DNA from: Candidatus Woesearchaeota archaeon
GTDB lineage: Archaea > Nanobdellota > Nanobdellia > Woesearchaeales > GCA-2685855
Length of the DNA stretch: 64,000 nt
Assembly: GCA_002685855.1 (NCBI GenBank)
Contig: NYYS01000018.1
Location: 12,859-76,858, forward strand
Direction: 5' to 3'
Each line of letters opens with the position of its first letter. Positions within the stretch are counted from its first letter, which is position 1. Positions 1 through 56,705 of this stretch are shown one piece after another. A program made the translations under genes and the position numbers. The notes beneath the pieces were generated by a model that saw only the letters and a list, made by a program, of their open reading frames with translations, searched no databases and was not told the DNA's origin.

Positions 1-681
1 GTCATCCACCATGACGGATTCATGAACTTCATCCAACGCGTAGCCATCTGGGATGAACAAGAAATCATCGACCTCTCAAAAAAAGTAAAAAACCCCAAAC
101 AAACACTCAACAAATCCAAAACAACCGGCCCGCTGATCGTCGTCGACCCTGTCCAGCCAGACAGAAACGCAGCCGCAGCACTATCCTTGGAAAAATTCAA
201 CCTCCTCAAACAAAGCGCAAAAGAATTCCTTGAAAACCCCTCAGAAAAATTCTTCACCATCCAACCACTCAACCCCGCACAACTCAAAAAAGAAGGCGCA
301 CACATCATCACAATAACACCCCTCGAAGGAAAAAAAGATGTTGTCGGAACAAAAATCATAAAAGTACTCAACCACCTCAGACAAAACCTCGCAGAACGCG
401 GCTTCACAATCACCGACTCAGGATTCGACATGAAACTCATCTACCTCTTTACAGAAGAACACAAAATCCCCCCAACATTCATCCACAAAGGACCCCCTAT
501 TGAACAAAAAAACCGAGCAGACGCCTTCAAAAAAAAATGGGGAAAAACAACCTATGAAAAAGAAGGAATCCTCTACACCAAACGAAAACGCGATTTCATC
601 CACGCAGCCGACTGCATCAAACACCACCTCAAAGACCCCTATGTAAAAGAACGACTCAAAAAATGCTCTCTGAAATCCTAA
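1..681 (+). CDS. 5'-truncated ORF running off window start; C-terminal part of a class I nucleotidyltransferase, possibly archaeal CCA-adding tRNA nucleotidyltransferase
   Basis: Reading frame is open from nt 1 (no stop before ATG at 22). Segment 'PLIVVDPVQPDRNAAAALS' resembles the conserved neck region of archaeal CCA enzymes. A/C-rich native codon usage. Confidence 0.4.
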   Translation, partial: VIHHDGFMNFIQRVAIWDEQEIIDLSKKVKNPKQTLNKSKTTGPLIVVDPVQPDRNAAAALSLEKFNLLKQSAKEFLENPSEKFFTIQPLNPAQLKKEGAHIITITPLEGKKDVVGTKIIKVLNHLRQNLAERGFTITDSGFDMKLIYLFTEEHKIPPTFIHKGPPIEQKNRADAFKKKWGKTTYEKEGILYTKRKRDFIHAADCIKHHLKDPYVKERLKKCSLKS

Positions 682-12293: not shown

Positions 12294-12995
12294 TCACCGC
12301 TTCAAATAAAACTGCCTCTTCTCCTCCTCAAACTTCTCAATCGCATACCGCAACATCGTCCGCGGCATATTTGTTGAATGCTTCATCAAAAACTCCTCCA
12401 ACACAGTCTCATCCTTTTTCCCCACCTCACGCAACACCCACCCCACCGCCTTATGAATAAGATCATGCTCATCCTTCAAAAGAAGCTCCGCAAGCAACAA
12501 CGCATCAGAAAAATCACCATCAGGAATATACGCAAACGTACTAATAATAGAAATCCTCCGCTCCCACAACACCGAAGAATGCGCAAGCTCATACAAAAAC
12601 TCCCGATCCCGATCCTTCAAAAACGCCCCCACAATCTTATGTGCGGAACAATCAACAAGATCCCAATTATTAACACAATCAAAATTCCTCACATACAAAT
12701 CAAACACACTCCTCCTAACAGCATCATCCCCCTTAGCAAATTTCAAACACAGAATAAACGCAGCAGTCAACCGCTCCTCATGAACCCCACTTTTTAATAA
12801 AATTTCAACATCCCCCAACGAAATATCCCAATACTTTTTCGAAAGCCTCCGCTGAACAGGAACACGCACACCAATAAAAATGTCGCCTTCACCATACTCC
12901 CCCTTCCCCGTCTTAAAAAAACGCGCATAATTCCTCGCATCCTCCACACTACTCGCAGCCCTCAACTCAGAACGAATCTCTTCAACACCCATCAT
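12294..12995 (-). CDS. DNA alkylation repair enzyme (AlkD/AlkC-like HEAT-repeat glycosylase family)
   Basis: Family-typical repeats 'WDLVDCSAHKIVG', 'WERRISIIS', 'HDLIHKAVGWVLRE'; ~230 aa. ATGA-type overlap with the upstream radical SAM gene. Confidence 0.6.
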   Translation of the reverse strand: MMGVEEIRSELRAASSVEDARNYARFFKTGKGEYGEGDIFIGVRVPVQRRLSKKYWDISLGDVEILLKSGVHEERLTAAFILCLKFAKGDDAVRRSVFDLYVRNFDCVNNWDLVDCSAHKIVGAFLKDRDREFLYELAHSSVLWERRISIISTFAYIPDGDFSDALLLAELLLKDEHDLIHKAVGWVLREVGKKDETVLEEFLMKHSTNMPRTMLRYAIEKFEEEKRQFYLKR

Positions 12996-14014
12996 CCATC
13001 AAGATGCTCTTCAGAAAACGCAACAGCATCCCTCACCTCCTCAGACTCTGAATCCTGAACACCCTCCCCCTTTAAATGTAAGGAAGAAAAATCAATCTTC
13101 CTCATTGTAAAATCTTTTTTCATCAACAACACCACACGCGACTCCTCCTGCTCATCCACAATCTTCCAACCACTCACCTCAGCAATTCTCTCAGAAAACT
13201 CCTTCACCTCATAATGATACGGCATCATCTCCATCTTCAACCGCTGACGCGAACTTCCTATAAACATATACGCCTTCACCTCAACAAAATGCGGATCCCC
13301 CCGATCCAGAATCTCTGCATACCTCTCCGGCTCCACATCATTCAACCCCTTAATCAACGTAATCCGCACAGCCGTCCGCATCTCCTTCTTACGATCCTTC
13401 AACACATCCATACTCTCCATCAACCGACTCCACCCATCCTTCCGCATCGGCTGATCAATCTTCTTATACAGCTCCTCATTCGGAGCATCCAACGACAGAT
13501 AAAACTGCGTAGGCGCCTCCAACTTCCTCAACACAACAGGTAGCTGCCCATTCGAAACAACAAACGTAGAAAAACCATTCTTGTGATACTCCCTAATCAA
13601 CGCAGACAACTTCGGATAATACAACGGCTCCCCATTCAACGAAATAGCCACATGCTTTGGAGTTTTAGACTCCTTGTATAACGCCATATCCACCTTCTCA
13701 TTCCCAGGAAACCCATTCAACAACACATTCTGCGCCCCCACACTCTCAGGAACAATCGCTTTAGGATCATCCGGCACTCCAAAACTACTATTATTACGAG
13801 AACGCCAACAAAAAATACAATCATGATCACAAAAATTCGTAGCAGGCGTCATCTGAACACACTGATGACTCTTAATCCCATAAAACCGCTGCTTATAACA
13901 CGTTCCACAACCCGTCAAAGCCTTCTTCGTCCACCCACAGATCTTTACAGAAGTATGCTCCCCTGCAAACCGATACCCCTGGTTCTCAAGCTGTTTCTTG
14001 TATTCTGGATCCAT
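12992..14014 (-). CDS. taw1: 4-demethylwyosine synthase Taw1/TYW1 (radical SAM, wyosine biosynthesis)
   Basis: 'CYKQRFYGIKSHQCVQMTP...NFCDHDCIFCWRS' matches the TYW1 auxiliary-cluster region plus the CxxxCxxC-W radical SAM motif. Archaea/eukaryote-specific enzyme. Confidence 0.75.
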   Translation of the reverse strand: MDPEYKKQLENQGYRFAGEHTSVKICGWTKKALTGCGTCYKQRFYGIKSHQCVQMTPATNFCDHDCIFCWRSRNNSSFGVPDDPKAIVPESVGAQNVLLNGFPGNEKVDMALYKESKTPKHVAISLNGEPLYYPKLSALIREYHKNGFSTFVVSNGQLPVVLRKLEAPTQFYLSLDAPNEELYKKIDQPMRKDGWSRLMESMDVLKDRKKEMRTAVRITLIKGLNDVEPERYAEILDRGDPHFVEVKAYMFIGSSRQRLKMEMMPYHYEVKEFSERIAEVSGWKIVDEQEESRVVLLMKKDFTMRKIDFSSLHLKGEGVQDSESEEVRDAVAFSEEHLDG

Positions 14015-27795: not shown

Positions 27796-28739
27796 TTATG
27801 CGGAAACTCTATCACACTTTTCAATTTTCTGATTCTTTCCCTCTCAAACGTATCCCAAATCTGCTCAGCACGCCTCGAAACATCCACATAAGAAAGACCA
27901 AACATCTCTCCATACTCCTTCTTCAACAAACCCAATGTCTCACGAATCGTAACCACCTCGGTCTGACTCGCATCCACATACCCTACCTTGGATCCATACC
28001 CTTCCAGTAACTCCCTCAAAGCATTCGACTGATAGTGCGGATTCAGCTTCATCTGAAACTCTAACCGTTCAAAACAACTATCATCCTTCTTCTTCCTCCC
28101 CTTAAGGCGCTCCATCAATCCAGAAGGATCCTGAATAACAGGAATAACCACAAGATTCGGCCCATTCTCCAAACAATAGTTATTTCCATGGATACTAACC
28201 ACATCCTCTCGTGTCAAACTTTCACGCCTTTCCTCAGCTTGCACTGGCTGATACACGAGACTGGAAACAACATTCCTACTCTGCACAATAATCTTCCCCT
28301 CATCAAGCAAAGGAAACAACACCTTCCGATGCAGTATCTCACGATCAAGCCCATACGCCGCTGCAGTCTCAGTTGCCGTATAATCAGAACCTGTCTTAAT
28401 AAACTCATCCCGAATCATCTTTCCAATCCCGCAATACGTCGGCTCAGACGTAAGCACAACATCATACAAAGACATATCAACATAGTAACGAGGATCTTTA
28501 TCACTTGTAAATATCGGATGCGTCCGCGAATTTTTCCAGAACTCATTCAAATCCAGCACCCGCAATCCCGTAATCTTGCACTGCTCAGCAACCGCATCCT
28601 GAATAACGCCCTTCCCACTCCCATCCAATCCATCAATAACAACAAACAATCCCTTTCTTCCATGAACCATTTTCTCATCCTCACCCGTTCCAAATAAGGA
28701 AACCACTTTCATTCTTCTCTCATCAACCCGTCTCATCAT
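27792..28739 (-). CDS. thymidylate kinase family protein (long form, ~100-aa C-terminal extension)
   Basis: P-loop 'VVIDGLDGSGKGV' in Tmk-like context. ATGA overlap with the ThyX-like stop supports a start at 28739; an alternative start is Met24 (28670). Confidence 0.55.
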   Translation of the reverse strand: MMRRVDERRMKVVSLFGTGEDEKMVHGRKGLFVVIDGLDGSGKGVIQDAVAEQCKITGLRVLDLNEFWKNSRTHPIFTSDKDPRYYVDMSLYDVVLTSEPTYCGIGKMIRDEFIKTGSDYTATETAAAYGLDREILHRKVLFPLLDEGKIIVQSRNVVSSLVYQPVQAEERRESLTREDVVSIHGNNYCLENGPNLVVIPVIQDPSGLMERLKGRKKKDDSCFERLEFQMKLNPHYQSNALRELLEGYGSKVGYVDASQTEVVTIRETLGLLKKEYGEMFGLSYVDVSRRAEQIWDTFERERIRKLKSVIEFPHK

Positions 28740-30610
28740 CCACCCTTCAACTTCCGCATCGAACGAATCTCTCCAACAGCCCTACCATAATCCAACTCAG
28801 TAGAACTATCAACAAACTTCATCGTCTTCCCAAGAACAGGAAGAACCTTTTCAGCACCCTTCGCAATCATCTGACACACCTGCTTATAGTTCAGATGCGC
28901 ACCCGGCTGCGTCCTCAACTCACAGATATGATGAAGCTCCCGTGCATTTACTGTAACAGGAAACCTTCCCAACGTACCCAACGGCAGCCCATACGAAGCA
29001 ACATGTGGATTAATCCTCTCAGCCGCCTCACCATACAGATCAGAAACATGCTGATAGATCTCATCCAACGGCTTGCTAAACCCTGCCATCCGAAACACCT
29101 CAGGAACAAAGAATCCCATATCCGGACTAAAATAACGGCTATCATACAACGTAAGAATCCGATGACGCCGCACATCACGAATCTCCCCAATCGTCAACAC
29201 CGCATTAATATCAAAACTAAACCGTTCAAACGCCCTCCCCGGCCTATGCCGCCGATTCGTCCGAACACCCTGATCTATTCCAGCATAGGCAAGAACAAGA
29301 CCTTCCATCTCCTCATGGTTCATCCCCCTCACCACCCTGTATGCACCCTGCTCACTCACCACAGGATCACGCTCTTTCACAATAGCCGCAACCAGATCCT
29401 CCAACTCATCGTTGCTCCAAATATCGATCGAAAAAGGAACACCTTCCTGAGAAACAGAGAGAACATCCTTCCCATACCCCAGACCACGATACCCCTCAAC
29501 AGTATATCCCTTCTCAGATGAAGACCAAAGCGGCTTATCCTTCCTCTCCTGATCATCCTCTCTCTCCACTTCAACACTCCTTGTCGTAGCCAGATACTTC
29601 AAAAAAGCCTGTGTTCTTCTACTCCTCGGATCAAGATCCTTCACCAACGGGCCCAACGAAGAAGATGAATCCCTCCGCAAAAGTTCAGCAATAACAACAC
29701 TCTCAGTAGTAGGAATACTATACCCATCCAACACAAGATCCCGAACATTCTGAGCATTCATCAACAAGGTCAACTGCGTCTTTGTTGCCAACGGCAGAAT
29801 ACTCCGCGCACGATCAAGCTGCATACTATTCAACGTCTTCTTATATGCCTGACTCAACTCCTCCTGACTTGCACCTTCACTCCCCGCTATATCCAACGCT
29901 TCAGCAACACCCGCAGAGAACTCATCAAACCTCAACACCTCCATCTCCATCGTCTTACGAACAATCTTCCCTTCATCTGTCCGAGTACTATTCAACCTTC
30001 GATACGAATCAAACAGCTGATCCATCACCTGGACAAACCGTTTTTCAAGTCCTGCCTTCTTAAACAACGGATCCACAAAATAGGGATACCTCCCCTCAAC
30101 CTTCTTATGAAACTTCCGATACCGTGTTGACTTCTCAATCCCTGCCAACAGACGATGATGCAACAGATGCATCGCCTGATACGCAGTCACATCCTCAAAA
30201 TTCACATTAATTGGAACAACCTGCGCAATAGAATCATCACCAAACTCACTAAACACCCGCTGATAAAAACCCGTGCCAAACGACTGAACAAGATCAGGAA
30301 CATTCAATTCATCAAACGCAGCCCTGCTCTCCTCATCTGCCAACACATCCTCCACAAGAGTAGTACGAACATCCTTTGGATTCCTACTCTGCTTCGACCC
30401 CAACGCACCCGAAAGAATCCCTAAAATTTTCGTAGAAAACACCGGCAGATCAAGATTCGAAAAAAACTTTTCCAACCTTGCCCCATCCTCTGTATCAAAC
30501 TCTCGCTGACGATACCCTAGTATATCACATAACTCCTCACGACTCATATCAACAAGTCCATTCGGTTTCTTCAACACATCAAGAACCATTTCCATCTTTA
30601 TTCCCCTCAC
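28736..30610 (-). CDS. thyX: FAD-dependent thymidylate synthase ThyX-family protein, unusually long (624 aa)
   Basis: C-terminal half carries the ThyX serine motif (RHRILTLYDS, 6 residues before the Ser) and 'NARELHHICELRTQPGAH'. N-terminal ~370 aa is unassigned, possibly a degenerate tandem ThyX duplication. Confidence 0.6.
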   Translation of the reverse strand: MRGIKMEMVLDVLKKPNGLVDMSREELCDILGYRQREFDTEDGARLEKFFSNLDLPVFSTKILGILSGALGSKQSRNPKDVRTTLVEDVLADEESRAAFDELNVPDLVQSFGTGFYQRVFSEFGDDSIAQVVPINVNFEDVTAYQAMHLLHHRLLAGIEKSTRYRKFHKKVEGRYPYFVDPLFKKAGLEKRFVQVMDQLFDSYRRLNSTRTDEGKIVRKTMEMEVLRFDEFSAGVAEALDIAGSEGASQEELSQAYKKTLNSMQLDRARSILPLATKTQLTLLMNAQNVRDLVLDGYSIPTTESVVIAELLRRDSSSSLGPLVKDLDPRSRRTQAFLKYLATTRSVEVEREDDQERKDKPLWSSSEKGYTVEGYRGLGYGKDVLSVSQEGVPFSIDIWSNDELEDLVAAIVKERDPVVSEQGAYRVVRGMNHEEMEGLVLAYAGIDQGVRTNRRHRPGRAFERFSFDINAVLTIGEIRDVRRHRILTLYDSRYFSPDMGFFVPEVFRMAGFSKPLDEIYQHVSDLYGEAAERINPHVASYGLPLGTLGRFPVTVNARELHHICELRTQPGAHLNYKQVCQMIAKGAEKVLPVLGKTMKFVDSSTELDYGRAVGEIRSMRKLKGG

Positions 30611-40820: not shown

Positions 40821-42359
40821 CTATCGATACCGAGAAAGATCCGGCCCAACCTCCTCCTGACCCGCCTGCCTTTTCACATCAGCAGCAACCTTCCTGCCAA
40901 GCAACCCCTCCAACCGGGAAAGAGACACACTCTTCACACCTGCAACATCCTTAATACCACTCCGAAACAACTTCCTTGCTCTTACACGACCAATATTCCG
41001 CAACCGCAACAACCCCAAAAGCTCCTCCTTTGCACCATGCCGCAACCGCGTCCGCAACACCTTCAACTCTTTCAGAATATCATGAAACTTCAACAACACA
41101 CACATCTCCTCAGCCGCATACACCAACCAATCCGCAGCATCCAACTTTGCATGAATCTCCCCCGGACGAACATTCAACGCATTCAATAATTCTTCCTCGC
41201 TCTTCTCATTCATCCACTCATCAAAAAAGAAAGCAGTCTTCACACTATTCAAAAAATCCTCATACTCACTACTATGATCCATCGGCACAGAAGTAATAAA
41301 CACCTCCTCATTCAACCCCACAAGCTCCTCCACCCAATCCAACTCCTTAACACGAACACGCAACAACGGCCGCATCTCCAACGTAGAACTCACCATCTGC
41401 AAAAAACTAAATACATTCCTCTTCTTCCCTGTCGCCCGCTTCAAAGCCTCAATAATCAACTGAGCCGTATACGGATCCAAGTACAACTCACTAACCCTCT
41501 TCCCAACCGGCGTAGCAACAAGAGACCCCTCTTCACCCAGATCAGAAGCAGACACAAACCCATCATCCTTTTTTCCACCCTCAACACGAATAAACTCCCA
41601 CTCCTCCAACTGCTCCAACGTCTTTCCAATCAACCAATGAATCTTTTCACTATCCCCATAACTATGCGCATAAAAAGTACGATCAAAAAAATCCTTCAAA
41701 GCAGACTCAGACAAACAATACTCAGTAGCAATCAACGTCAACACATACGTACGAAACACCGGCTCAACCGCCAACTTCGACAAAATCTCCTCCGGCTCAC
41801 CCTCAACATACCGCTCCCGAATCTCCTTCTTCTGCCCATCAGAAACAGCAATCGTAATCGCCTGCCCCTCAGTCTCCTTCCCCGGCCTCCCCGCCCTCCC
41901 AATCTGCTGATGATACTCCAACACAGGAATCGGACTCATCCCCCACCCCCCACTATACCGTTTCAGATCCCTCACCACAACACGAAACGCAGGAAGATCA
42001 ACACCCATCGCCAAACTCGGAGTCGAACAGATAACATGCAAACGAGAATCCCGAAACCCCTCCTCAATCAACCTCCTCTGAGAACTCGTCAACCCTGAAT
42101 GATGAAACGCAATCCCCCGCTCAACACACTTCGCAAGCCGCTTACACTGCCGCGTAGCAGAACCCACCCCCTTCAACACCTTCTCTGAAAGAACAGCCAG
42201 CTCAGACAGAACAGGAAGCTTCAACGCAATCTGCTCCGCCTGCGACTCAGCACCCCTCCGCGTATTACAAAACACCAACGCCTGCCGATCCTGCTGCACA
42301 GTATCCAAAGCAATATTCAAAACCGCATCCGGCGTTGTCTGGGGAATAGGGATCTTCAT
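40821..42359 (-). CDS. Hel308/Ski2-type helicase, C-terminal portion only (RecA2, WH, ratchet, HhH); N-terminal ATPase domain absent
   Basis: Starts at RecA2 ('QALVFCNTRRGAE'). Motif VI 'QQIGRAGRPG'. C-terminal HhH 'LRLRNIGRVRARKL'. Stop codon 12 codons upstream of the ATG in frame; TATA-like box ~35 nt upstream. Confidence 0.7.
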   Translation of the reverse strand: MKIPIPQTTPDAVLNIALDTVQQDRQALVFCNTRRGAESQAEQIALKLPVLSELAVLSEKVLKGVGSATRQCKRLAKCVERGIAFHHSGLTSSQRRLIEEGFRDSRLHVICSTPSLAMGVDLPAFRVVVRDLKRYSGGWGMSPIPVLEYHQQIGRAGRPGKETEGQAITIAVSDGQKKEIRERYVEGEPEEILSKLAVEPVFRTYVLTLIATEYCLSESALKDFFDRTFYAHSYGDSEKIHWLIGKTLEQLEEWEFIRVEGGKKDDGFVSASDLGEEGSLVATPVGKRVSELYLDPYTAQLIIEALKRATGKKRNVFSFLQMVSSTLEMRPLLRVRVKELDWVEELVGLNEEVFITSVPMDHSSEYEDFLNSVKTAFFFDEWMNEKSEEELLNALNVRPGEIHAKLDAADWLVYAAEEMCVLLKFHDILKELKVLRTRLRHGAKEELLGLLRLRNIGRVRARKLFRSGIKDVAGVKSVSLSRLEGLLGRKVAADVKRQAGQEEVGPDLSRYR

Positions 42360-42424: not shown

Positions 42425-42454
42425 CAGGCTCAAGCCCACTATGGGGCTGTAGTG
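42425..42454 (+). repeat. 30-bp direct repeat copy 1 (includes first 12 nt of tRNA-Pro plus 18 nt of its leader)
   Basis: 'caggctcaagcccactatggggctgtagtg' is exactly repeated at 42516-42545. TATAAAAG box at 42395-42402 precedes copy 1. Confidence 0.6.
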
Positions 42455-42515
42455 GGTAGGCACCTTTCGCTCGCGTTGCTTTAAAGGTGCGCGAAATGCG
42501 TGGGTTTCGCCTATG

Positions 42516-42545
42516 CAGGCTCAAGCCCACTATGGGGCTGTAGTG
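42516..42545 (+). repeat. 30-bp direct repeat copy 2 (functional 5' end of tRNA-Pro)
   Basis: Exact copy. Continues into the full tRNA. Confidence 0.6.
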
Positions 42546-42638
42546 TAGTTTGGAAACACCCCTCCTAACAGAGGATGTTGAACACTATCACTGGTGGTTC
42601 GGGGCCGCCCGACCGGAGTTCGAATCTTCGCAGCCCCA
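42534..42638 (+). tRNA. tRNA-Pro: tRNA-Pro(CGG) with a ~32-nt non-canonical intron between D-arm and anticodon stem
   Basis: Acceptor GGGGCTG/CAGCCCC + discriminator A. D-arm GTGT-AGTTTGGAA-ACAC. Anticodon arm GGTGG-TTCGGGG-CCGCC (U33, anticodon CGG, G37). Variable CGAC. T-arm CGGAG-TTCGAAT-CTTCG. Extra 42560-42592 not accommodated by the cloverleaf. Confidence 0.5.
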
Positions 42639-44152: not shown

Positions 44153-44242
44153 TGGGTTCCTCCATTAACTGTTAAACAGTAATAACAGAAATCAGCCAAC
44201 ATATAAAAAGATTTCGTTGGAAACTTTCCGAAAAAGAAAAAT

Positions 44243-44462
44243 ATGGGCCCGCCGTGACTTTCAGCAATCCCTCGCACAAGGGGCTTGAGCTGCAGGCGAA
44301 ACCCCTGCATCTGTTTGAAAGCAGAGCTCTCAAACATGCCAGAAACCTGAATGGTTTCTAAGCATTTGCCCACTTTCTCGCGAGAAAGTGTTTTGAACAC
44401 GGGACCACTCGATCACCGATGGAATTATCAGTCGAGCACTCCACCAGGCTAAGCTACGGGCC
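44243..44462 (-). tRNA. tRNA-Ile: tRNA-Ile(GAU) containing two introns: a 12-nt intron at canonical 37/38 and a ~134-nt intron in the T-arm (between nt ~60 and 64)
   Basis: Minus-strand read: GGGCCCG-TA-GCTT-AGCCTGGTG-GAGT-G-CTCGA-CTGATA[ATTCCATCGGTG]A-TCGAG-TGGTC-CCGTG-TTCAAAA-CAC[~134 nt]..CACGG-CGGGCCC-A. Perfect 7-bp acceptor, 5-bp anticodon stem, T-loop consensus. Mature length 74 nt. Confidence 0.65.
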
Positions 44463-44711
44463 CATACCGTCCCCTGTCGGACTTCCATACAATCTAACGA
44501 TATTCACGTAGCCTGGAGGACTTCACAAAGTGAATGTCCTCTTGTCTTCTTCTACGAGATCTTCGAAAGATCTCTTTTGAACCGACGACCTTGTGGTCTC
44601 TTCACCCTGTTTTCAGGGGTAACAGCCACACGCTCCACCGCTAAGCTAAGGGGACCTGGTTCCGAGAACTATAATCCTTTTTATAAAGCTTACCAAAAAC
44701 ACTCCTCTTTT

Positions 44712-47944: not shown

Positions 47945-48456
47945 GGGGAAAACCAGAGCCAAAGCAAGATCTTTCTAGCCTGAGCGATCTCGAACTCTTC
48001 CAGGAACTCGGAAAAAGACTCGCAGAAAAACACCAAACAGATCCTTCCACTCTTCTCATCCCCACACCCACTCCCCAAAACACCATCCCTCTCCCCATCT
48101 TTACAGGATCCCTTTCTCCCCTAGAAGCCGTTGTCAAATACCTCCACGAAAACCACAAACTCTCATTCACCGCAATCGGAATCAAACTCAACCGCTCGGT
48201 AAAAACAATCTGGCAAGCCTACCAAACAGCAAAAAAGAAGATGCCAGAACCCTTCACACCCTTCAAAGGAGAAACACTCCCCCTCTCAGAACTCTCAAAC
48301 AGAACCTTCTCACTCTACGAAAACCTCGTTCTTTACCTTTCAAAAAAACACCGCCCGAAAGAGATCGCCCTCCTCATCAACAGACCCCAACGAAACATTA
48401 ATACAATCCTTAGCAGAGCACGAAAAAAAGATCAACAAACAAAAACAGAATCATGA
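47932..48456 (+). CDS. small HTH protein with sigma-70 region-4-like helix-turn-helix segments; candidate regulator of the downstream giant gene
   Basis: 'LSFTAIGIKLNRSVKTIWQAYQTAKKKM' and 'EIALLINRPQRNINTILSRARKK' resemble region-4/LuxR-type HTH. Overlaps the start of the 2750-aa ORF by 4 nt. Confidence 0.35.
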   Translation: MQKNRGKPEPKQDLSSLSDLELFQELGKRLAEKHQTDPSTLLIPTPTPQNTIPLPIFTGSLSPLEAVVKYLHENHKLSFTAIGIKLNRSVKTIWQAYQTAKKKMPEPFTPFKGETLPLSELSNRTFSLYENLVLYLSKKHRPKEIALLINRPQRNINTILSRARKKDQQTKTES

Positions 48457-51400
48457 ATAAAAAACAAAAAGCAAAACAAATACCCTCAGAAGGGAAATTA
48501 CTCCTACTAGTCCTATTCATACTTACAACTACACTTATCTACTACATCCAGCCAGCCTTCATCGCATTCATCATCTACGACGAAACCAGCATCACACTTC
48601 AACTCAACCAAACAATAACAGAAGATACATTCCTGCCTCTCGAAATCGGAAAAGTAGACTCCATCCATATCAAAGGCCATCTTATAGGAAACGGAACCGC
48701 AACCATAAAACTCGACCAACCAGGAAAAAACCTTCTCATCTATGAGAAAACAGGCTCTAAAGTAAATCCCCTCATCCCCAACGATCCACCCTCCGACTCA
48801 CCCCTTCAAACAACAATAACCTACGGAAACAACCCAAACTTCGACACAGACAACAACGGATGGGAACTCACCACTAATGCAATCGACTACACCGTAGAAA
48901 CAACCAACACCCAAAAATACAACCAAAGCACACTCTGCACTCGCTGGGCACTTAACAACCAATACATAGAATGCAACGGAAATGCAATGTGCTGCCTCTT
49001 CACAGGCATTGAACAAAGAACAGAACAATGGAACGCCCCTTTCAGCCTTCACGACCAACTCCTTGGAGTAAAACAAGCAAACCTCATCACAGCACAACTC
49101 ATCTCAACAACAATCAACTACACCAACATCACAACACAACCCGGATCAACACAATCCCTTCCAGGGTATTTCATCGACAACACTCTCCAATCGCCAATCG
49201 ACCACTGCGGAGAAACCTGCACCTTTGAAGGAACCCAGGATCCCCGTCTAAAAATAGAACTCCACAACGCAGTCCTTTACATCGACACAATCACCTACAC
49301 CCCCTACTCCGAAAACAAACCACCCACACTCCAAAAAAGCACCCACAAACTCTACTCCGGAGCAACACTCAAATTCACAGAACTCTTCCACGATCCAGAT
49401 AAAGACAATCTCACAATAACAATCACAAACACAACAAACCTCACACTAACAAAAACCCACCAAGGATATAAAATAGAAGGAAAAAAAGGAAACTACACCC
49501 TTGAAATAGAAGCCAAAGACCACCGCTACACAATAACAGAAAAGATAAACCTCACCCTCAAGGATTTCAACCTGGAAACCCTCCTCAACAAAAACAAAAA
49601 AGAAAAAACTGATGAAAAACCCTCTGTAAAGATAACCGGCCCCGCCGAAATCAAAGGAATCTACAAACACCCTCAAAAACAAAGCCCCTTCAAAGGAATA
49701 CAATTCGGCGCATTCATCCAAGAAGGAGATGTAGAAATAGGAATAAAAAATAAAGGCCTGCTCCTCCTCAAAGATGCAAACTACGCCGGCCTTGAAGAAA
49801 TACAGGTCAGAACACCCCCAAGCAGAAGATATGCCACAGACATCATCGCAGTAAACGACATCCAACTCAAAGAAGCAGTCTTTGTACTCCCCAAACAATC
49901 ACCAATAACCCAAATACAACACTGCCCCAACTGGAACTTTGAAGAACAAAGCTGTCCAAAATGGGAAGATGCAGGAGTGGCATTTGCACAAAACCAAACC
50001 CATGTCTGGTGGGTAGCAGACCACTTCTCAGGATGGGTAGGACTCAGCTACGGCTTTGACGATTTCGAATATGATGACGATAATAACTATTGTACAGACA
50101 CACCATCTCTTGAAAACTGGATGACAGTTTCCTGTGAAGCAAATGCGGGCTCGTTCAACCTCACAACAGACAACTGCTACTTAGGATCCTCCTGTGGAAA
50201 TGTAACCAACACAGACTCACAAGATGCTGCAAACGATGTAACAATAGTCTACAACTCCAATCTCTCTTCAGCAGAGATCGTCGACCAAAGAGTCTACTTC
50301 AAAGAGGACTGTGCAAACCCCCTCTCCGGAGGAAACGGAGATACCTACATAATGGGATTAACAAGAGGATCAGGAGCAGCAGTTGCCAGAATGGGCTTCA
50401 ATAGTGAAGGCCTTCTTGGTTGCCAACGAAGAAATATGTCAGACAGCCTAGCAAACTGCGCAGGACAAACAGCACAAAACCTCACCTGTGGACGATGGTA
50501 CTATCTCGAAATCCATTACGACACAAGAGTAAACAACCTTACCTGCTATGTCAACGGAACACCCTTCTGCTCAGAAGAAGGAGTAGTCATATTCAGAGAC
50601 AACGTAACAATAGAGGCCATAGGAATCCTCCCAACTTCAGACTACCAAAACAACGAAACATTCTTCCTCGACGAATACCACACCGCCGACAAATACCTTG
50701 GAGGCTACCCTTGGGTAGAAGATCTCAACCACACAACCAGATTCGTCACACCCGGCACCGACCTAACAATAAACGCAACAATCTACGACAACGATGTCAT
50801 CAACGGAACCCTCGGCACCGTGCTACTAGAAGGAAACTGGAGCGGAGTAATGACCAACTATACCCCCACAAGTTCAGGATCCAAATACTTCTACAAAGTC
50901 GGACGAGGAAACTTCTCAAGCAACGACTCAGTAGGCTACCGCTGGTATGCAAACGACACCATCAACCAACAATACTACTCCCCCCTGCAAATAATCACAA
51001 TAGAAAACAGATTCATCCTTGACACAGATCAAAATAACCTCACAGATCTCTTTCTCAGCAGCCTTCTTCTCGCAGACGTAGACAACGACTCAGACCTCGA
51101 CCTCTATCTCTCAGGAGCAACAGCAATACCTGGCGGAAACGTATTTTCCGGACTCTACCTCAACAACGGATCTGGACTCTTCACAGACACACTTCAAGCC
51201 AACTTCATTGCACTCAGAGAAGGATCATCCACCTTTGGCGATACAAACAATGATGGACTCCCCGACCTCATAATCTCAGGATTAAATAGCGGATCAAGAT
51301 ACACAAGAGGCTATATCAACAATCTATCAAATCCAGGAACATTCTACAACGACACCTCATCGAGTTACAATCCTCTTTCCCTTAGCAGTTTTGCACTTGC

Positions 51401-54400
51401 AGATTATGATGCAGACGGAGACTATGATCTCATCGCAACAGGACTTTTTGCAGCCGGAGAAGGAGCAGGAATTAACACATTTACAGATGGTGTATCAGCT
51501 CTTGATACAACCCATATCAACAACTTCACAAACGTATCCCGTCCAGCACTTCTATTAGCAGATATAGATAGTGATGGAGACCTTGACATCTTCATGACAG
51601 GACAAACAGAAGCCACCCCCCTCTACACAGGAATCTACCTCAACAACGGCTCAGGAAGATACATACAAGACCAATCACAGGCAAACCTCCTCGCAATCTT
51701 TAATGGAGCAGCAGTAGCAGCAGACATAGATGCAGATGGAGACATCGACATCATCATCGCAGGAGACTCAAACGAAACAACCACAAAAAACTACACAATG
51801 GAGGTCCTCCTCAACGACGGAAATGGAAACTTCTCAATAGACAGTCAACAAGACAACCTCACCGGACTCGATTTTGCTTCACTCGCAGTAGGAGATATCG
51901 ACCTCGACGGAACAATAGACATCTTTGCAATGGGAAACACCTCAAATGGACCTGCTGCATTCACCTATCTCAACAACGGATCCGGCTACTTCAAAGAAGA
52001 CGAATCATTCTCAGCAATGCCCCTTCATTACGGAAGCGCAGCCCTTGCAGATATTGATAACGACGACGACCTTGATCTTATCATCTCAGGAACAAACAAC
52101 ACCTATCGTAACTACACTCTTGTCTACAAAAACCAGATCAACAGAAACATGACCAACCGCCCCCCTGTAGCTCCCACAGGCATCGACTGGAACAGATCCG
52201 GAAGCAACGGCAAACTCGAACTAAACTGGTCCATAGGAACAGACAATGCAACAGGAGCAAACGCAGTCACACCTGACAACGCAATAACCTATCACCTCAG
52301 TCTCGGAACAACTCCCGGCGCATCAGACATCATGAGCAGATCCTATGGAGGATTCTCCAACCCGAGCAACGGCCACCTTGGAAACAGACTCCAATCAAGA
52401 AACCTCTCACTCTACCTCGAAGGAACCTACTATGCTACCATCCAATCAATAGACGCACAAGGAAAACTCTCCGACGACAACCTAACATTACTAACTAATC
52501 AACCACCAACACATTCAGCCCCCATACTCAACACCTCCCCCCTCAACAACAACCGAACAAGTGAAAACTTTACCTGCTACAACCAAACAACCTACGACTT
52601 CGACAACGACACAATCGTAAACGCCTACAAGTTCTACAGAAACAGCACTTCAGCAGTCATCGTGCAAGCAAGCTTTGAGGACAACAGCACAACCATTGAA
52701 AACTTCCCACCGCTCACAGAATCAGGAACAAACTATACAAACGGCTACCAAGGAAGAGGAATCTACATAGATGACAACGACCAACTCAACTATAGTGCAA
52801 CCTCCCTTCTTACAGCTGAAGAGGCCACGATCGAGCTCTGGACACGCTTCGACTGGGACCCCGGAGCAACCGGAGACACAAACCACACACTTATATCCTT
52901 CGGAAACCAATCAAGCTATCAGAATACAGGAATACTTTTCTACAACGACGTATACAATCTCCTCGCCCTTACCCTATTTGGTGAAACAGGATCTCCTCGT
53001 ACAGTAAGCTACGGAATAAGCGATATCAACCCAAACGAATGGCACCACATACTCGTATCATGGGACTACAACAACGGAACAGGAATAGAGATGGAACTCT
53101 ACCTTGATGGAGCTCTCGTAGACAACACTCCCTCTTCCCAAACAGCCCTTACTGTGAATTCAGGAGGAACAGGAGGAGACGGTGTCTTCATAGGGAGATA
53201 CAACGACATAGCCTATGCAAACGCAACAATTGACGAACTCTACATCTGGAACGTTCAGATGGGCCTTGAAAAAGCAGTCCAAAGCAATGCAACAAACTAC
53301 GGCTTTGTTCCATCTGGATCAACCAACAAAAACGAAACCTGGACCTGCGAAGTAACACCTCAGGACAGATACACAAGAGGCCTCCCATCAAACTCCAGCC
53401 AGATCCTAATGCTCTCACAACTACAAGTTGATCTAAACGACCCAGACAACGGAACAACAAACCAGCTTTTCACAAACGTATCCTACAATTGCAGTGCAGA
53501 ATCCTCTTCAGTTTTATCAAATATAACCCTCTATCCTGACTTCGAAGGATGGCAACAGAACGGAACAACCACCACCTCAGGACTCAACAACTCCATAAAC
53601 ATAACAAGATCCTACGAAGGATTAATCACAGGAGATAAACAACGCTTTACAGACGGAAGAATTCTCTGGAACTGTAGAGTAAATGATTCATCAGGAGAAT
53701 CAGCCATAGCAACAACAAATTCCACATTCAGCAACTGGGACCTCGGAAACCACTCCAACACTTCCCTCATCAACAACCGCCTCAGTCTCATAAAAAACAC
53801 CTCAAACGAATATGAAAACCTAACAGGAACATTCGACAGCAGAGTCTTCGATGGCGGTGTAGGAGCCTACTGGGATAACTTTTCATGGAAACCTCTCACA
53901 CCCTATGGTGTTGGCCTCTTCAACACCACAAACATACTCTATCACTTTGACAACTCTTCAGATCTGCAAGAAGACAACGGAACCTATACCGATGCAACAC
54001 TCCAGGGCACCAACTGCTCATCAAGCGGAACATCGGTTCCACTATTAGACACAGAAAAGATCTTCGGAACATTTGCAGTCGATTTCGACGGAACAGACGA
54101 CTATATCTCCTGTAATGACACAACTTTATTAAACCTTTCAGGAATATACTCGATCTCGTTCTGGATCAGAACCAATGCAACAAACGTTCCCATATTCGCA
54201 AAAAATGATTATGCAGGAACTCCTGCAGGTTTCCAATTCCAAATAACCTCAAACGGCACAGCAGCATTCAAGGCAACACGATCAGGAACAACAATGTACC
54301 TAGAAGGAACAACAAACATATCCGATGACAGATGGCACCACATCTCAACAAGACACATACAACTTGTCATGCCCGGACCATCATTATCACAGAACATATC

Positions 54401-56705
54401 TCTTTATGTTGATGGAGTATACGAAGCAGGAGCTATAGGTGCAATATTTTTCAATCTTAAAACAGCAGCCAGACTTGAAATAGGAAGAAACGACACCTCC
54501 TACTACGACGGACTAATTGATGAGCTTTCAATAACTTCTTTAATGCCCGAAAAGAACCATAGTTACGAATTCGAACGAGGCCTCTCAAACTTAACATTCC
54601 AGGTACGAAGCGATGCAGACAACGCCAGCTGGCCCGCCCACCTCGGACCAGACGGAACAGCAAACACCTTCTTCACAAACTGGACACACTCCGAATTAAA
54701 TGTATCCAAAAACCGCTACTTCCAATACAGAGTCTTCCTCAACTCATCACGAAACAGCATCACCCCAGGACTCGAACGAGTACTCATAAACTATACACCT
54801 AACCCCCCACCAAACTTTGGAAATGTAACTCTCCAGAACAACTTCCATCTCTTTGATGGAAACGGAATAGACCTCGGAGCAGTCGTTGTAAACGATACCT
54901 ACATCGACAACGGAACAAGTGATGGAGGATCAAATGCAACAAACTACAATAACCAAAGCCAAATGATCATGATGCAATTTAACTCTACAGATAGAACAGA
55001 AAGACGCGGCATCTTCGCATTTGAAACCGACCAGGTAAAAATTGTAAACATCTCTAACGCCACCCTAGAACTATTCGCAATAGCAGTTAACCAGACACTT
55101 CAGAACATAAGTCTTCATAGGGTAACCTCTACCTGGAACGTCGACGTAGTAAGCTTTATCAACAGAACAACTTCAGGACTATGGACAACACCTGGAGGAG
55201 ACATTACAGCAGCAGAAGAAAGTTGGACAAACCTAACAACAAGCAACAGCTGGCATAACTGGACAATAACCAATATCGTCCAAAACTGGCTCAACGGAAG
55301 CTGGTCAAACCAAGGAGTACTACTCAAACCATCAGGATACGGAACAAACAAAAACAGCCAATGGGCAGACAGCTCAAGAAGATACTTAAATCCTCGCCTC
55401 GTAATCCGCTGGAACATTCCCTCCCTTTCAATCGTCGAAAACCTTAACACAACACTAAACCTATCACTCTACTTTTCCGACACATACGGAGAAGAACTCA
55501 ACTATACTGTAAACGCAAGCTCAAACTTCACCACCTCAATCGACCAGACAACAGGCATCGTAAACATAAGCCCGCAAGCAGGCTTCATAGGTAATGGAAC
55601 ACTCATCGCATCTGCAACAGACGGCTACCAATCTACAAACAGCAACAACTTCACCGTAAACATACGAGCAGACACACCATCAATCATACTCAACGCATCA
55701 CCTGACCTTCCAAACGCCACACAAAACCTCACCTGTAACATAACAGCTGCAGATAACCAAACCGCAAACCTCACCGTAGAATGGTACTGGTATAACAGCT
55801 CAACAGTCTTCAATTCAGGAAACACAACCGTACAAAACAACACAGAAACCACTATCGCCACTGTAAACTCTGCAAACACCCTAAAAGACCAAGTCTGGAA
55901 CTGCACCGCAAGAGTAAACAGAAGCATCCGCTTCTCACCCTATGTAACAGATAGCCTCACGATTGTAGGAACCCCTCCCTCTACGCCCGTACCCCTCACA
56001 CCAACAAATGGAAACACAACCTTCCGTGACCGCCAGGTTAACTTTACCTGGCAGGCAGCCACAGACGTCGACAACGACTCAATAACCTATGCAATAGAAG
56101 TCAACAACTCCGTCTGCCCAAACATACGAAACGACTCAATCAACACAACCTACTACCTCTCATCAATACAACTCTGTACAGACGACGAAGCAGCCTCCAA
56201 CCTCTACTATTGGAGAGTTGTAGCTAGTGACGGAACACAAAACGGAACCTATTCCTCAATATTCAACTTTTCCATAGAACCCTATGTAACAATAACAATA
56301 GATCCTAACAGTGTAGGATTCGGAACAGGCTATGGAAGAGGAGCGACAAACGACACAACAAATGATAGTCCCCCGCCCTTCACAATACGCAACGATGGAA
56401 ACGTTGTCGCAAACCTGACAAACATAACTGCAAACCAAACACTCTGGGGAAGCTCAAGCGCAGGACTCGGAACACGCTACATGAGAGTACGTGCCTCAAA
56501 CAGCACAGAAGCAAACAGCTACAACGACTCAGGATCGATCACAAACTTCACAAACCTTAACTCATCCATCCCAAACGTCATTGCACAACTCAACTACAAC
56601 GACAGCAGCGACGAAGTAGACGTAGATCTCTCAATCGAAGTACCTGCTGACGAAGTCGCAGGAGCAAAAAACACCACAATACTATTCATATGGCAACAAT
56701 CATGA
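48453..56705 (+). CDS. giant (2750 aa) secreted/surface protein: N-terminal TM/signal, FG-GAP (integrin-alpha-like beta-propeller) repeats, two LamG/ConA-like lectin domains, many Ig-like beta domains, very rich in N-glycosylation sequons
   Basis: Seven 'LADxDxDGDxDL..SG' FG-GAP/VCBS-like blades (51.06-52.10 kb). LamG-like 'TIELWTRFDWDP...WHHILVSWDYNNG...ELYLDGALV...DELYIWN' and 'YSISFWIRTNAT...WHHISTRH...SLYVDGVY'. More than 150 N-x-S/T sequons. Confidence 0.7.
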   Translation: MNKKQKAKQIPSEGKLLLLVLFILTTTLIYYIQPAFIAFIIYDETSITLQLNQTITEDTFLPLEIGKVDSIHIKGHLIGNGTATIKLDQPGKNLLIYEKTGSKVNPLIPNDPPSDSPLQTTITYGNNPNFDTDNNGWELTTNAIDYTVETTNTQKYNQSTLCTRWALNNQYIECNGNAMCCLFTGIEQRTEQWNAPFSLHDQLLGVKQANLITAQLISTTINYTNITTQPGSTQSLPGYFIDNTLQSPIDHCGETCTFEGTQDPRLKIELHNAVLYIDTITYTPYSENKPPTLQKSTHKLYSGATLKFTELFHDPDKDNLTITITNTTNLTLTKTHQGYKIEGKKGNYTLEIEAKDHRYTITEKINLTLKDFNLETLLNKNKKEKTDEKPSVKITGPAEIKGIYKHPQKQSPFKGIQFGAFIQEGDVEIGIKNKGLLLLKDANYAGLEEIQVRTPPSRRYATDIIAVNDIQLKEAVFVLPKQSPITQIQHCPNWNFEEQSCPKWEDAGVAFAQNQTHVWWVADHFSGWVGLSYGFDDFEYDDDNNYCTDTPSLENWMTVSCEANAGSFNLTTDNCYLGSSCGNVTNTDSQDAANDVTIVYNSNLSSAEIVDQRVYFKEDCANPLSGGNGDTYIMGLTRGSGAAVARMGFNSEGLLGCQRRNMSDSLANCAGQTAQNLTCGRWYYLEIHYDTRVNNLTCYVNGTPFCSEEGVVIFRDNVTIEAIGILPTSDYQNNETFFLDEYHTADKYLGGYPWVEDLNHTTRFVTPGTDLTINATIYDNDVINGTLGTVLLEGNWSGVMTNYTPTSSGSKYFYKVGRGNFSSNDSVGYRWYANDTINQQYYSPLQIITIENRFILDTDQNNLTDLFLSSLLLADVDNDSDLDLYLSGATAIPGGNVFSGLYLNNGSGLFTDTLQANFIALREGSSTFGDTNNDGLPDLIISGLNSGSRYTRGYINNLSNPGTFYNDTSSSYNPLSLSSFALADYDADGDYDLIATGLFAAGEGAGINTFTDGVSALDTTHINNFTNVSRPALLLADIDSDGDLDIFMTGQTEATPLYTGIYLNNGSGRYIQDQSQANLLAIFNGAAVAADIDADGDIDIIIAGDSNETTTKNYTMEVLLNDGNGNFSIDSQQDNLTGLDFASLAVGDIDLDGTIDIFAMGNTSNGPAAFTYLNNGSGYFKEDESFSAMPLHYGSAALADIDNDDDLDLIISGTNNTYRNYTLVYKNQINRNMTNRPPVAPTGIDWNRSGSNGKLELNWSIGTDNATGANAVTPDNAITYHLSLGTTPGASDIMSRSYGGFSNPSNGHLGNRLQSRNLSLYLEGTYYATIQSIDAQGKLSDDNLTLLTNQPPTHSAPILNTSPLNNNRTSENFTCYNQTTYDFDNDTIVNAYKFYRNSTSAVIVQASFEDNSTTIENFPPLTESGTNYTNGYQGRGIYIDDNDQLNYSATSLLTAEEATIELWTRFDWDPGATGDTNHTLISFGNQSSYQNTGILFYNDVYNLLALTLFGETGSPRTVSYGISDINPNEWHHILVSWDYNNGTGIEMELYLDGALVDNTPSSQTALTVNSGGTGGDGVFIGRYNDIAYANATIDELYIWNVQMGLEKAVQSNATNYGFVPSGSTNKNETWTCEVTPQDRYTRGLPSNSSQILMLSQLQVDLNDPDNGTTNQLFTNVSYNCSAESSSVLSNITLYPDFEGWQQNGTTTTSGLNNSINITRSYEGLITGDKQRFTDGRILWNCRVNDSSGESAIATTNSTFSNWDLGNHSNTSLINNRLSLIKNTSNEYENLTGTFDSRVFDGGVGAYWDNFSWKPLTPYGVGLFNTTNILYHFDNSSDLQEDNGTYTDATLQGTNCSSSGTSVPLLDTEKIFGTFAVDFDGTDDYISCNDTTLLNLSGIYSISFWIRTNATNVPIFAKNDYAGTPAGFQFQITSNGTAAFKATRSGTTMYLEGTTNISDDRWHHISTRHIQLVMPGPSLSQNISLYVDGVYEAGAIGAIFFNLKTAARLEIGRNDTSYYDGLIDELSITSLMPEKNHSYEFERGLSNLTFQVRSDADNASWPAHLGPDGTANTFFTNWTHSELNVSKNRYFQYRVFLNSSRNSITPGLERVLINYTPNPPPNFGNVTLQNNFHLFDGNGIDLGAVVVNDTYIDNGTSDGGSNATNYNNQSQMIMMQFNSTDRTERRGIFAFETDQVKIVNISNATLELFAIAVNQTLQNISLHRVTSTWNVDVVSFINRTTSGLWTTPGGDITAAEESWTNLTTSNSWHNWTITNIVQNWLNGSWSNQGVLLKPSGYGTNKNSQWADSSRRYLNPRLVIRWNIPSLSIVENLNTTLNLSLYFSDTYGEELNYTVNASSNFTTSIDQTTGIVNISPQAGFIGNGTLIASATDGYQSTNSNNFTVNIRADTPSIILNASPDLPNATQNLTCNITAADNQTANLTVEWYWYNSSTVFNSGNTTVQNNTETTIATVNSANTLKDQVWNCTARVNRSIRFSPYVTDSLTIVGTPPSTPVPLTPTNGNTTFRDRQVNFTWQAATDVDNDSITYAIEVNNSVCPNIRNDSINTTYYLSSIQLCTDDEAASNLYYWRVVASDGTQNGTYSSIFNFSIEPYVTITIDPNSVGFGTGYGRGATNDTTNDSPPPFTIRNDGNVVANLTNITANQTLWGSSSAGLGTRYMRVRASNSTEANSYNDSGSITNFTNLNSSIPNVIAQLNYNDSSDEVDVDLSIEVPADEVAGAKNTTILFIWQQS

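Follow-up and report, generated by a model that had tools for sequence, protein, structure and literature searches.

A 64,000-nt stretch of contig NYYS01000018.1, hereafter the window, carries on its minus strand a tRNA-Ile(GAU) gene that is broken by two inserts, one in the anticodon loop and a much longer one in the T-loop. The question raised by this locus is whether it is a living gene from which both inserts are spliced and, if so, what kind of intron the long one is. Our answer to the first part is that the locus is very probably a functional, twice-interrupted tRNA gene whose transcript would be spliced through the archaeal endonuclease-ligase pathway. As for the second part, the locus belongs to an already documented intron type and the gene itself is of modest novelty. 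No description was found, in the literature examined, of the class of long T-loop introns of Woesearchaeota-like genomes that includes this one, or of the two-partner 5′ arm of these introns.

The interrupted tRNA-Ile(GAU) gene

Read on the minus strand from 44463 to 44244, the gene begins with GGGCCCG UA GCUU AGCCUGGUG GAGU G CUCGA CUGAUA(ATTCCATCGGTG)A UCGAG and continues with UGGUC CCGUG UUCAAA(134 nt)U CACGG CGGGCCC A, where the inserts are shown in parentheses. The original prediction, made from the nucleotide sequence of the window, had recognized a tRNA-Ile(GAU) cloverleaf on this strand, and all the parts that it named were found, among them the acceptor GGGCCCG/CGGGCCC, the D arm GCUU/GAGU, the anticodon arm CUCGA/UCGAG with the loop CUGAUAA, and the T-stem CCGUG/CACGG. 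The predicted span, 44243-44462, was one base off, the true one being 44244-44463. When both inserts were removed in silico, the product was a regular 74-nt cloverleaf that ARAGORN called as tRNA-Ile(gat). This molecule was compared with the definition of an elongator class I tRNA, which calls for stems of 7 bp (acceptor), 5 bp (anticodon) and 5 bp (T, with G53-C61), a D arm, a 7-nt anticodon loop with U33 and a purine at 37, and the T-loop UUCRANY; U8, A14, G18G19, U33, A37, G53, U54U55C56, A58 and C61 are all present. Five tRNA-Ile(GAU) genes without introns, taken from related genomes, agree with it at 68 to 71 of its 74 positions. Because the spliced 74-mer is called as tRNA-Ile and shows this degree of identity to its orthologues, the gene must be considered real, far beyond what chance would produce.

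The unspliced locus is invisible to standard tools. ARAGORN called no tRNA anywhere in the 64-kb window, and a search of the window against Rfam at gathering thresholds returned nothing. A permissive Rfam search aligned the tRNA family, RF00005, with the 5′ part of the gene only, at 15.8 bits compared with a threshold of 29 bits. These misses are expected because the gene is interrupted in its T-loop, and they are no argument against it. The failure of the standard finders to call the locus is, nevertheless, what can be said for regarding it as a dead gene, a tRNA-Ile pseudogene with two insertions that are never removed. Such an interpretation is very improbable. All the exon bases of the cloverleaf are intact and the uninterrupted orthologues are nearly identical to it; both inserts are located exactly at sites where splicing motifs form; the adjoining tRNA-Asn gene has the same design; and the nearest relative has introns at the same two sites. 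Moreover, DPANN genomes are small, and tRNA scans detected no second tRNA-Ile gene within the window.

Predicted splice junctions and folding of the T-loop intron

Cleavage at a bulge-helix-bulge (BHB) motif was taken to occur after the second nucleotide of each bulge. Checked on the 12-nt insert, which occupies the canonical position 37/38 and is called intron 1, this rule leaves A38 beside the anticodon stem, as it should. The motif was defined as two 3-nt bulges split by a 4-bp helix (PMC5829648), and an unbiased enumeration of such motifs over the precursor had exactly introns 1 and 2 among its top candidates, intron 2 being the 134-nt insert. At intron 2 the outer helix is the 5-bp T-stem CCGUG/CACGG, and the central helix (H), UUCA/UGAA, is flanked by the bulges A58 A59^A and A G^U60, where the caret marks the predicted splice site. 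Cuts at the symmetric bulge positions, i.e., after A59 and after the last G of the intron, would leave U60 in place and generate the 74-mer with the mature T-loop UUCAAAU. U60 was found in all 41 T-loops tallied among the tRNA-Ile(GAU) genes of the genome loci described below (24 of these genes are uninterrupted and the remainder have introns elsewhere), and A60 in none. The four registers from 60/61 to 63/64, which the CAC ambiguity of the original prediction would allow, were checked by hand and discarded since none gives a 4-bp central helix. Intron 2 was therefore placed at 59/60, the only register that forms the central helix and the one that agrees with the U60 of the orthologues. The original prediction had the size of the insert (~134 nt) and its location in the T-arm right; the site, however, is in the T-loop and not at ~60-64 next to the 3′ strand of the T-stem. 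Its reading of the T-loop as TTCAAAA has to be replaced by UUCAAAU, given the bulge geometry and the U60 found in all orthologues.

Intron 1 has the relaxed form of the motif known as bulge-helix-loop (BHL). Its outer helix is the anticodon stem, its central helix pairs C32-A35 with the intron (CUGA/UCGG), the 3′ bulge is U-G-A38, and the 5′ bulge is fused into an 8-nt loop. The intron mode of ARAGORN reported intron 1 after intron 2 had been removed, and a custom BHB finder recovered it as well (h = 7, H CUGA/UCGG), in agreement with its earlier identification as an archaeal BHB-type intron. Splicing in silico, folding and BHB enumeration thus bore out the expectation of two introns of this type, of 12 and ~134 nt, with a motif at both junctions.

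Folded alone, intron 2 forms a terminal rod followed by three hairpins, with a free energy of -57.8 kcal/mol (z = -4.9 in comparison with shuffled sequences). Its ends pair as an inner helix, CA.UUUCUCGCG/UGCGAGGGA.UG. Helix h′, which closes these ends, is present in the fold of the precursor constrained to contain the BHB motifs and in the unconstrained minimum-energy fold of intron 2 alone; a single unpaired C lies between its 3′ strand and the central helix. The h′ duplex has a free energy of -12.5 kcal/mol, and only one of the 37 tails tested bound the head of the intron more tightly. The constrained precursor, at -92.2 kcal/mol compared with -98.9 kcal/mol without constraints, retained the whole structure. 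The perfect 20-nt palindrome that had been noticed next to the 5′ junction is indeed present and can fold into a local hairpin, P1. It is not an independent oddity, as the local hairpin is common in related introns and competes with the end-closing helix. According to these folding models, the palindrome would be one of two alternative partners of the 5′ arm of intron 2, the other one being the 3′ end of the intron.

These features are best explained by the following pathway. The tRNA-Ile gene would probably be transcribed together with the tRNA-Asn gene located 4 nt upstream, and both introns would be removed by proteins rather than by self-splicing once the junctions have folded into BHB motifs, with the anticodon stem as the outer helix and C32-A35 paired to UCGG at intron 1, and the paired ends closing a compact three-hairpin domain at intron 2. 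EndA would then cut in the two 3-nt bulges, and the RtcB ligase would join the exons and probably circularize the intron. The tRNA-Ile exons would be joined at CTGATA^ATCGAG and GTTCAAA^TCACGG, and the predicted circle junction of the excised intron 2 is CTGAAAG^ACACTTTC. For the T-loop intron of tRNA-Asn, the corresponding predictions are GTTCAAA^TCCGAC for the exons and TGGAAG^AGAGATC for the circle.

Several observations weigh against this pathway. Intron 1 lacks an inner helix and its motif is relaxed, and one unpaired C faces the 5′ bulge of intron 2, which makes this motif slightly relaxed too; an enzyme of broad specificity may be needed to process them. The unconstrained fold of the full precursor has the palindrome hairpin in place of the inner helix. 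Furthermore, neither a tRNA_int_endo nor an RtcB domain was found in the 48 open reading frames (ORFs) scanned in the 64-kb window.

Two other identities of intron 2 were also considered, one being a group I intron able to splice itself and the other an intron that hosts a box C/D guide RNA in the manner of the archaeal tRNA-Trp intron. Group I introns are usually well over 200 nt long, and intron 2, with 134 nt, is shorter than the typical ones. Comparison with RF00028 (group I, P3-P8 core) gave no match at E ≤ 10, and Rfam searches of intron 2 and of the window gave nothing relevant at the gathering threshold, at E ≤ 5 or at E ≤ 10, a cutoff at which no family matched the intron. It is true that group I introns occur in Woesearchaeota (PMC6125680) and that intron 2 ends with CUGA, a tetranucleotide resembling a D box. 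However, this CUGA, the only one in the intron, overlaps the UGAA strand of the central helix, whose pairing with the T-loop shows family-wide covariation at position 57 (see below), and no RUGAUGA C box was found in intron 2. Both possibilities were effectively refuted by these tests. With no C box and no Rfam match at E ≤ 10, the suggestion that intron 2 harbors a processed small RNA found no support either. The tRNA-Trp intron of Haloferax and other Euryarchaeota is similar to intron 2 in being unusually long and structured and in that it could give rise to a stable, perhaps circular RNA; it differs in that it is located at 37/38 and has C/D boxes that guide tRNA methylation, whereas intron 2 is at 59/60 without a C box or Rfam match.

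The suggestion that a split tRNA had left its relic here found no support. Genes of the split or permuted kind, such as those of Nanoarchaeum equitans, Caldivirga and Cyanidioschyzon, resemble the locus in forming a BHB from flanking sequences and in using the same endonuclease, but the three tRNA-Ile exons are contiguous, collinear and on one strand within 220 nt, so that the gene is an intron-containing one. Table 1 lists the features of the locus and its surroundings.

Table 1. Features of the tRNA-Ile(GAU) locus and of the neighboring region (coordinates are those of the window)
Feature	Position	Strand	Description
pre-tRNA-Ile(GAU) gene	44244..44463	-	220 nt; three exons and two introns; CCA not encoded
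Exon 1	44426..44463	-	acceptor 5′ strand, D arm, anticodon stem 5′ strand and loop to A37
Intron 1	44414..44425	-	12 nt, ATTCCATCGGTG; canonical position 37/38
Exon 2	44392..44413	-	A38, anticodon stem 3′ strand, variable loop UGGUC, T-stem CCGUG, T-loop U54-A59
Intron 2	44258..44391	-	134 nt; position 59/60, T-loop; BHB geometry
Exon 3	44244..44257	-	U60, T-stem 3′ strand CACGG, acceptor 3′ strand CGGGCCC, discriminator A73
Central helix of intron 2, 5′ strand	44394..44397	-	U54 U55 C56 A57 of the T-loop; pairs with UGAA
Central helix of intron 2, 3′ strand	44260..44263	-	UGAA, followed by the 3′ bulge A G^U60
Palindrome (local hairpin P1)	44371..44390	-	CACTTTCTCGCGAGAAAGTG; perfect, 20 nt, self-match; 5′ half is the 5′ strand of helix h′
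Helix h′, 3′ strand	44265..44276	-	UGCGAGGGAUUG; pairs with CACUUUCUCGCG at 44379-44390; closes the intron ends
Intron 2 segment	44281..44311	-	ATGCAGGGGTTTCGCCTGCAGCTCAAGCCC; 28/33 near-copy at 42496-42528 (+), just upstream of tRNA-Pro
T-rich tract	44231..44241	-	TTTTTCTTTTT; directly after the tRNA-Ile discriminator
pre-tRNA-Asn(GUU)	44468..44655	-	188 nt; 4 nt upstream of tRNA-Ile; spliced 72-mer called tRNA-Asn(gtt) by ARAGORN
tRNA-Asn intron at 37/38	44598-44619	-	22 nt
tRNA-Asn intron at 59/60	44482-44575	-	94 nt
TATA-box-like sequence	44678..44687	-	TTTATAAAAA; 23-32 nt upstream of tRNA-Asn +1
tRNA-Pro(CGG)	42534-42638	+	found by a custom T-arm/acceptor scan; 1.6 kb from tRNA-Ile
Perfect 30-nt direct repeat	42425-42454 and 42516-42545	+	CAGGCTCAAGCCCACTATGGGGCTGTAGTG; flanks 61 nt of hairpin-rich sequence
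Helicase-related protein	40821-42359	-	512 aa; Helicase_C and archaeal helicase domain 4; no DEAD/ATP-binding domain

Long T-loop introns in related archaea and their possible origins

One genome per species was scanned using the 5′ half of tRNA-Ile as the query, and 47 loci were obtained, the window's own species not being among them. Those with a taxon name are labeled as Woese-, Micr- or Nanoarchaeota, except for 14 from "uncultured Methanosarcinales", a label considered doubtful, and three from organisms named only "archaeon". Of their tRNA-Ile(GAU) genes, 24 have no introns, and most of the others have an intron at 37/38 only. Introns at 59/60 were present in loci L006 (111 nt), L008 (45 nt) and L015 (42 nt). 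A gene for a helicase, one of which is also located next to the locus in the window, is syntenic with tRNA-Ile in at least eight loci. The nearest relative, L099 (same contig as L015; helicase 58% identical), has the arrangement tRNA-Asn(GUU)-TTT-tRNA-Ile(GAU) about 1 kb upstream of the helicase gene, and its tRNA-Ile keeps both intron positions, with a 14-nt intron at 37/38 that is similar to intron 1 (ATTTAACATCAGAT) and a 42-nt intron at 59/60. The tRNA-Ile genes of more distant syntenic relatives, e.g., L038 and L047, have no introns. Intron positions that are shared with the nearest relative and lacking in distant ones are the pattern expected of real, evolving introns. Strings that resemble C and D boxes were seen in some introns of the relatives, for example GGATGATGC … CTGAG in the 86-nt intron at 37/38 of the tRNA-Ile of L008 (219-417, plus strand), and TATGATGTGA in a D-loop intron of the tRNA-Asn of L099 (4818-4930, plus strand).

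A pattern derived from the junction (GGTC-N4-GTTCRAA, a gap of 76-136 nt, YGAANN, and TC-N4-CGGGCCCA) was then used in one metagenome scan, which produced 45 loci, four of them tandem-tRNA artifacts. Together with the window, L006 and L048, a Tara Oceans marine metagenome contig with a tRNA locus identical to that of the window, there were 49 matches. After subtracting the four artifacts and collapsing duplicates, 37 distinct T-loop introns of 82-138 nt remained. They are hosted by tRNA-Ile(GAU), tRNA-Ile(UAU), tRNA-Val(UAC) and tRNA-Val(GAC) genes, and 36 of them are introns other than intron 2 with its type of junction. Long T-loop introns are thus a widespread class, and intron 2 is typical of it. 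An insert of this size had been described as rare. This holds for cultured archaea (11-129 nt, PMC4090602) and not for this lineage, where the metagenome scan added 33 distinct inserts of 82-138 nt. The junction type is not confined to Woesearchaeota-like genomes either, as indicated by another tRNA in a Micrarchaeota metagenome-assembled genome (L003, 1432-1567, plus strand; acceptor GCAGGGA), whose T-loop is interrupted at the same junction by 51 nt (TTCAAA^T…TTGAAAA^TCCTGC).

The 37 introns were used to examine the pairings proposed for intron 2. Only R57 and its partner were free to vary at the central helix, since the search pattern fixed the other three pairs, which are therefore uninformative. 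Position 57 and its intron partner form A-U in 27 introns, G-C in 8, G-U in 2 and A-C in none (Fisher p = 1e-6). The intron ends, which were not in the pattern, pair best with their own partners, at a mean of -10.7 kcal/mol compared with -4.9 kcal/mol for mismatched ends (permutation p < 1e-4). The 5′ ends also pair, more weakly, with the adjoining segment to form a local hairpin in many, though not all, of the related introns. An Rfam search of eight related loci identified tRNAs and one rRNA, and no family matched the intron cores.

Position 59/60 is listed among the non-canonical intron positions of archaeal tRNAs (PMC4090602; PMC6379350). In the DPANN archaeon ARMAN-2, pre-tRNA-Cys is interrupted at 59/60 by an intron that the organism's own ε2 endonuclease cleaves in vitro, and tRNA-Pro has two T-loop introns (PMC3239211). 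The 59/60 introns of Thermoproteales and of ARMAN-2 pre-tRNA-Cys(GCA) and pre-tRNA-Pro(GGG) share with intron 2 the site in the T-loop, the two 3-nt bulges around a 4-bp helix and a canonical 37/38 intron in the same gene, and a DPANN host is a further point in common. The differences are in length, because the 134 nt of intron 2 exceed the range that a 2014 review gives for archaeal tRNA introns (11-129 nt, with medians of 12-25 nt; PMC4090602), in the host, a marine Woesearchaeota-like organism and not an ARMAN or crenarchaeon, and in the two-partner 5′ arm.

Two possible histories, both rather unlikely as they stand, were weighed for the long introns. The first would make intron 2 an evolutionary scar: a short ancestral 59/60 intron would have been lengthened by duplication of its 3′ part and the 3′ exon, for instance after integration or excision at the 3′ end of the tRNA or after slippage, with splicing to the distal copy rescuing the gene and the palindrome being the ancestral inner helix. 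The two complementary partners of the 5′ arm would be accounted for in this way, and orthologues in which the 59/60 intron is short (42-45 nt) or lacking are consistent with it. The adjoining tRNA-Asn gene is interrupted at the same two positions as tRNA-Ile, and the T-loop introns of both genes are not alike in sequence. That of tRNA-Asn starts with A and a palindromic hairpin (GAGATCTTTCGAAGATCTC), ends with UGGA-AG^U, and includes at 44507-44524 (minus strand) the sequence GAAGTCCTCCAGGCTACG, a 14/18 near-copy of its own 3′ splice site and complete 3′ exon, GAAG^TCCGACAGGGGACG (p = 0.007). This near-copy looks like a decayed duplicate of the 3′ end of the gene, and a further, weaker copy of the 3′ end follows the 5′ hairpin. 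About 9 of 38 long T-loop introns have significant internal near-copies of the 3′ junction or 3′ exon. Nonetheless, inside intron 2 of tRNA-Ile no copy of the 3′ junction reached significance (p = 0.98), and Tandem Repeats Finder detected nothing in the Ile and Asn introns. Some of the introns that favor this history are, moreover, relatives of each other, and their p-values are modest.

The second history would have intron 2 carry, or be, a mobile or functional structured RNA element that the tRNA splicing machinery excises, as a circle, and that spreads between tRNA genes. Intron 2 folds, as mentioned above, far better than shuffled sequences do, and intron transposition has been reported in Thermoproteales (Sugahara 2008 and Fujishima 2010, summarized in PMC4090602). 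Part of the core also recurs 1.8 kb away, upstream of a tRNA-Pro(CGG) gene and in the sense orientation with respect to it. A clean cloverleaf is obtained from this gene when 32 nt that separate the D arm from the anticodon stem (within 42560-42592) are removed; tRNA-Val(aac), called at the same place by the intron mode of ARAGORN, has mismatches and was rejected. The copy of the intron 2 segment, which matches at 28 of 33 columns (z = 11; E of about 3e-4 for the whole window by our own estimate), lies within 64 kb of genome in a unit bounded by a perfect 30-nt direct repeat that consists of 18 nt of leader and the first 12 nt of tRNA-Pro. The element common to intron 2 and the tRNA-Pro leader has the form GGGTTTCGCC…CTCAAGCCC, and at both copies flanking GUGGG…CCCAC/CCCC strands can close the domain. 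Neither the 32-nt insert of tRNA-Pro nor the upstream repeat unit of 91 nt yielded a BHB on enumeration. No 4-mer of the 30-nt repeat is self-complementary, as judged by eye, so that the repeat cannot host a symmetric BHB.

Shared cores were also found among the metagenome relatives. The T-loop introns of both tRNA-Ile(UAU) and tRNA-Val(UAC) at L057, L065, L072, L075, L090 and L096-L098 have a common core with a GGTTACGCNC hairpin loop and the strings …ACGCAAAGAGCG…GCTCACTTCGTTCGCAA; this core has no Rfam match, and part of it resembles the tRNA-Ile 3′ exon. The similarities to the multi-intron genes and intron transposition of Thermoproteales are two introns per gene, gain and loss among close relatives, and, in the metagenome relatives, introns of different tRNA genes with a common core. 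The differences are that the phylum is another one and that the second copy of the segment in the window is located in the tRNA-Pro leader and not in a recognizable intron.

Other results argue against a mobile element. The shared segment occurs only twice in 64 kb and in none of the other 101 loci, and intron 2 has neither a C box nor a match to an Rfam family. The genome and metagenome scans detected no homologue of its core except on the Tara Oceans contig with the identical locus, so that the internal hairpins, with no homologue outside the organism, have no covariation support. The 59/60 intron of the nearest relative, with only 42 nt, implies that the large core is dispensable. A match to the core in a scan of viral contigs was a single chance match in a GC-rich coding region, and matches to CTCAAGCCC in L040 belong to an apparently unrelated sequence and were taken as chance.

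Since the tRNA-Ile intron lacks an internal copy of its 3′ junction, both histories are kept as rivals and neither is offered as a verdict. Near-copies, shared segment and shared cores suggest that long introns may lengthen when their 3′ junction is duplicated, or may carry mobile modules. We tentatively put forward, as a possibility that still falls well short of probable, that a large undescribed family of structured T-loop introns of ~80-140 nt exists at position 59/60 in Woesearchaeota-like DPANN archaea, with a two-partner 5′ arm, mobile modular cores and frequent near-copies of the 3′ splice site and 3′ exon. In these reduced genomes, splicing by proteins would then either rescue tRNA genes that have been hit by duplications or insertions or carry a mobile RNA element. 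If this is true, the Asn-Ile operon of the window and the copy of the element beside tRNA-Pro would be a live example of that family.

Genomic setting and implications

The tRNA-Asn and tRNA-Ile genes are likely to form a dicistronic transcript with four introns. The TTTATAAAAA box upstream of tRNA-Asn is its probable promoter, and in the relatives boxes of the CTTTAAAAA type precede the tRNA genes by a similar distance. The T-rich tract TTTTTCTTTTT is a probable terminator. The Asn-Ile pair is present in at least 10 of the 47 genome loci.

Judging by its genes, the host is an uncultured marine Woesearchaeota-like archaeon of the DPANN group. Domain scans identified archaeal neighbors (Hel308 domain 4, DUF460, a CCA-adding enzyme and Tyw1), and identical proteins are encoded by marine metagenome contigs of Tara Oceans, from assembly ERZ2773079 with biosample SAMEA2620097 in the contig names. 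For the adjacent helicase-related protein, identity to the best homologues does not exceed 58%, and those with a named source are from Woesearchaeota or Nanoarchaeota. Among the matches listed, out of 3245 at E ≤ 1e-30, homologues of ~520 aa have the same short architecture and, where an organism is given, are also from Woese- or Nanoarchaeota. The archaeal CCA-adding enzyme is represented by its C-terminal part at 22-681 (plus strand), the gene probably starting before the window; such an enzyme is consistent with the lack of an encoded CCA in all three tRNA genes. The region at 12992-14014 (minus strand) encodes a radical SAM wyosine enzyme that resembles Tyw1.

Other features of the window include a 624-aa ORF at 28736-30610 (minus strand) with a ThyX (Thy1) domain at residues 451-592 only, preceded by a long N-terminal part with no Pfam match. 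A protein of 2750 aa encoded at 48453-56705 (plus strand) has matches to FG-GAP and Laminin_G-type domains and is flanked by several beta-helix/NosD proteins; we take these to be large surface proteins of a kind common in DPANN genomes. Across the whole window the plus strand has a GC skew down to -0.56 and an AT skew up to +0.42, both nearly uniform though genes are present on both strands.

Numerous disrupted tRNA genes, variants of EndA with an additional (L3) loop and incomplete predicted tRNA sets have been reported for DPANN lineages (PMC5829648). For its BHB models, tRNAscan-SE 2.0 used Cren-, Eury- and Thaumarchaeota as the training set (PMC8450103). None of the three tRNA genes of the window is called in the default ARAGORN and Rfam runs made here, which provides a concrete explanation for the "missing" DPANN tRNAs (PMC5829648), and a simple junction signature (T-stem, UUCRAA, intron, YGAANN, U60) recovered dozens of hidden genes in one scan. 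The tRNA-Ile locus is a clean substrate to test what the poorly characterized splicing endonucleases of DPANN archaea cut. The two-partner 5′ arm, the pseudo-3′-exon copies and the shared cores make the origin and spread of non-canonical tRNA introns testable on natural data.

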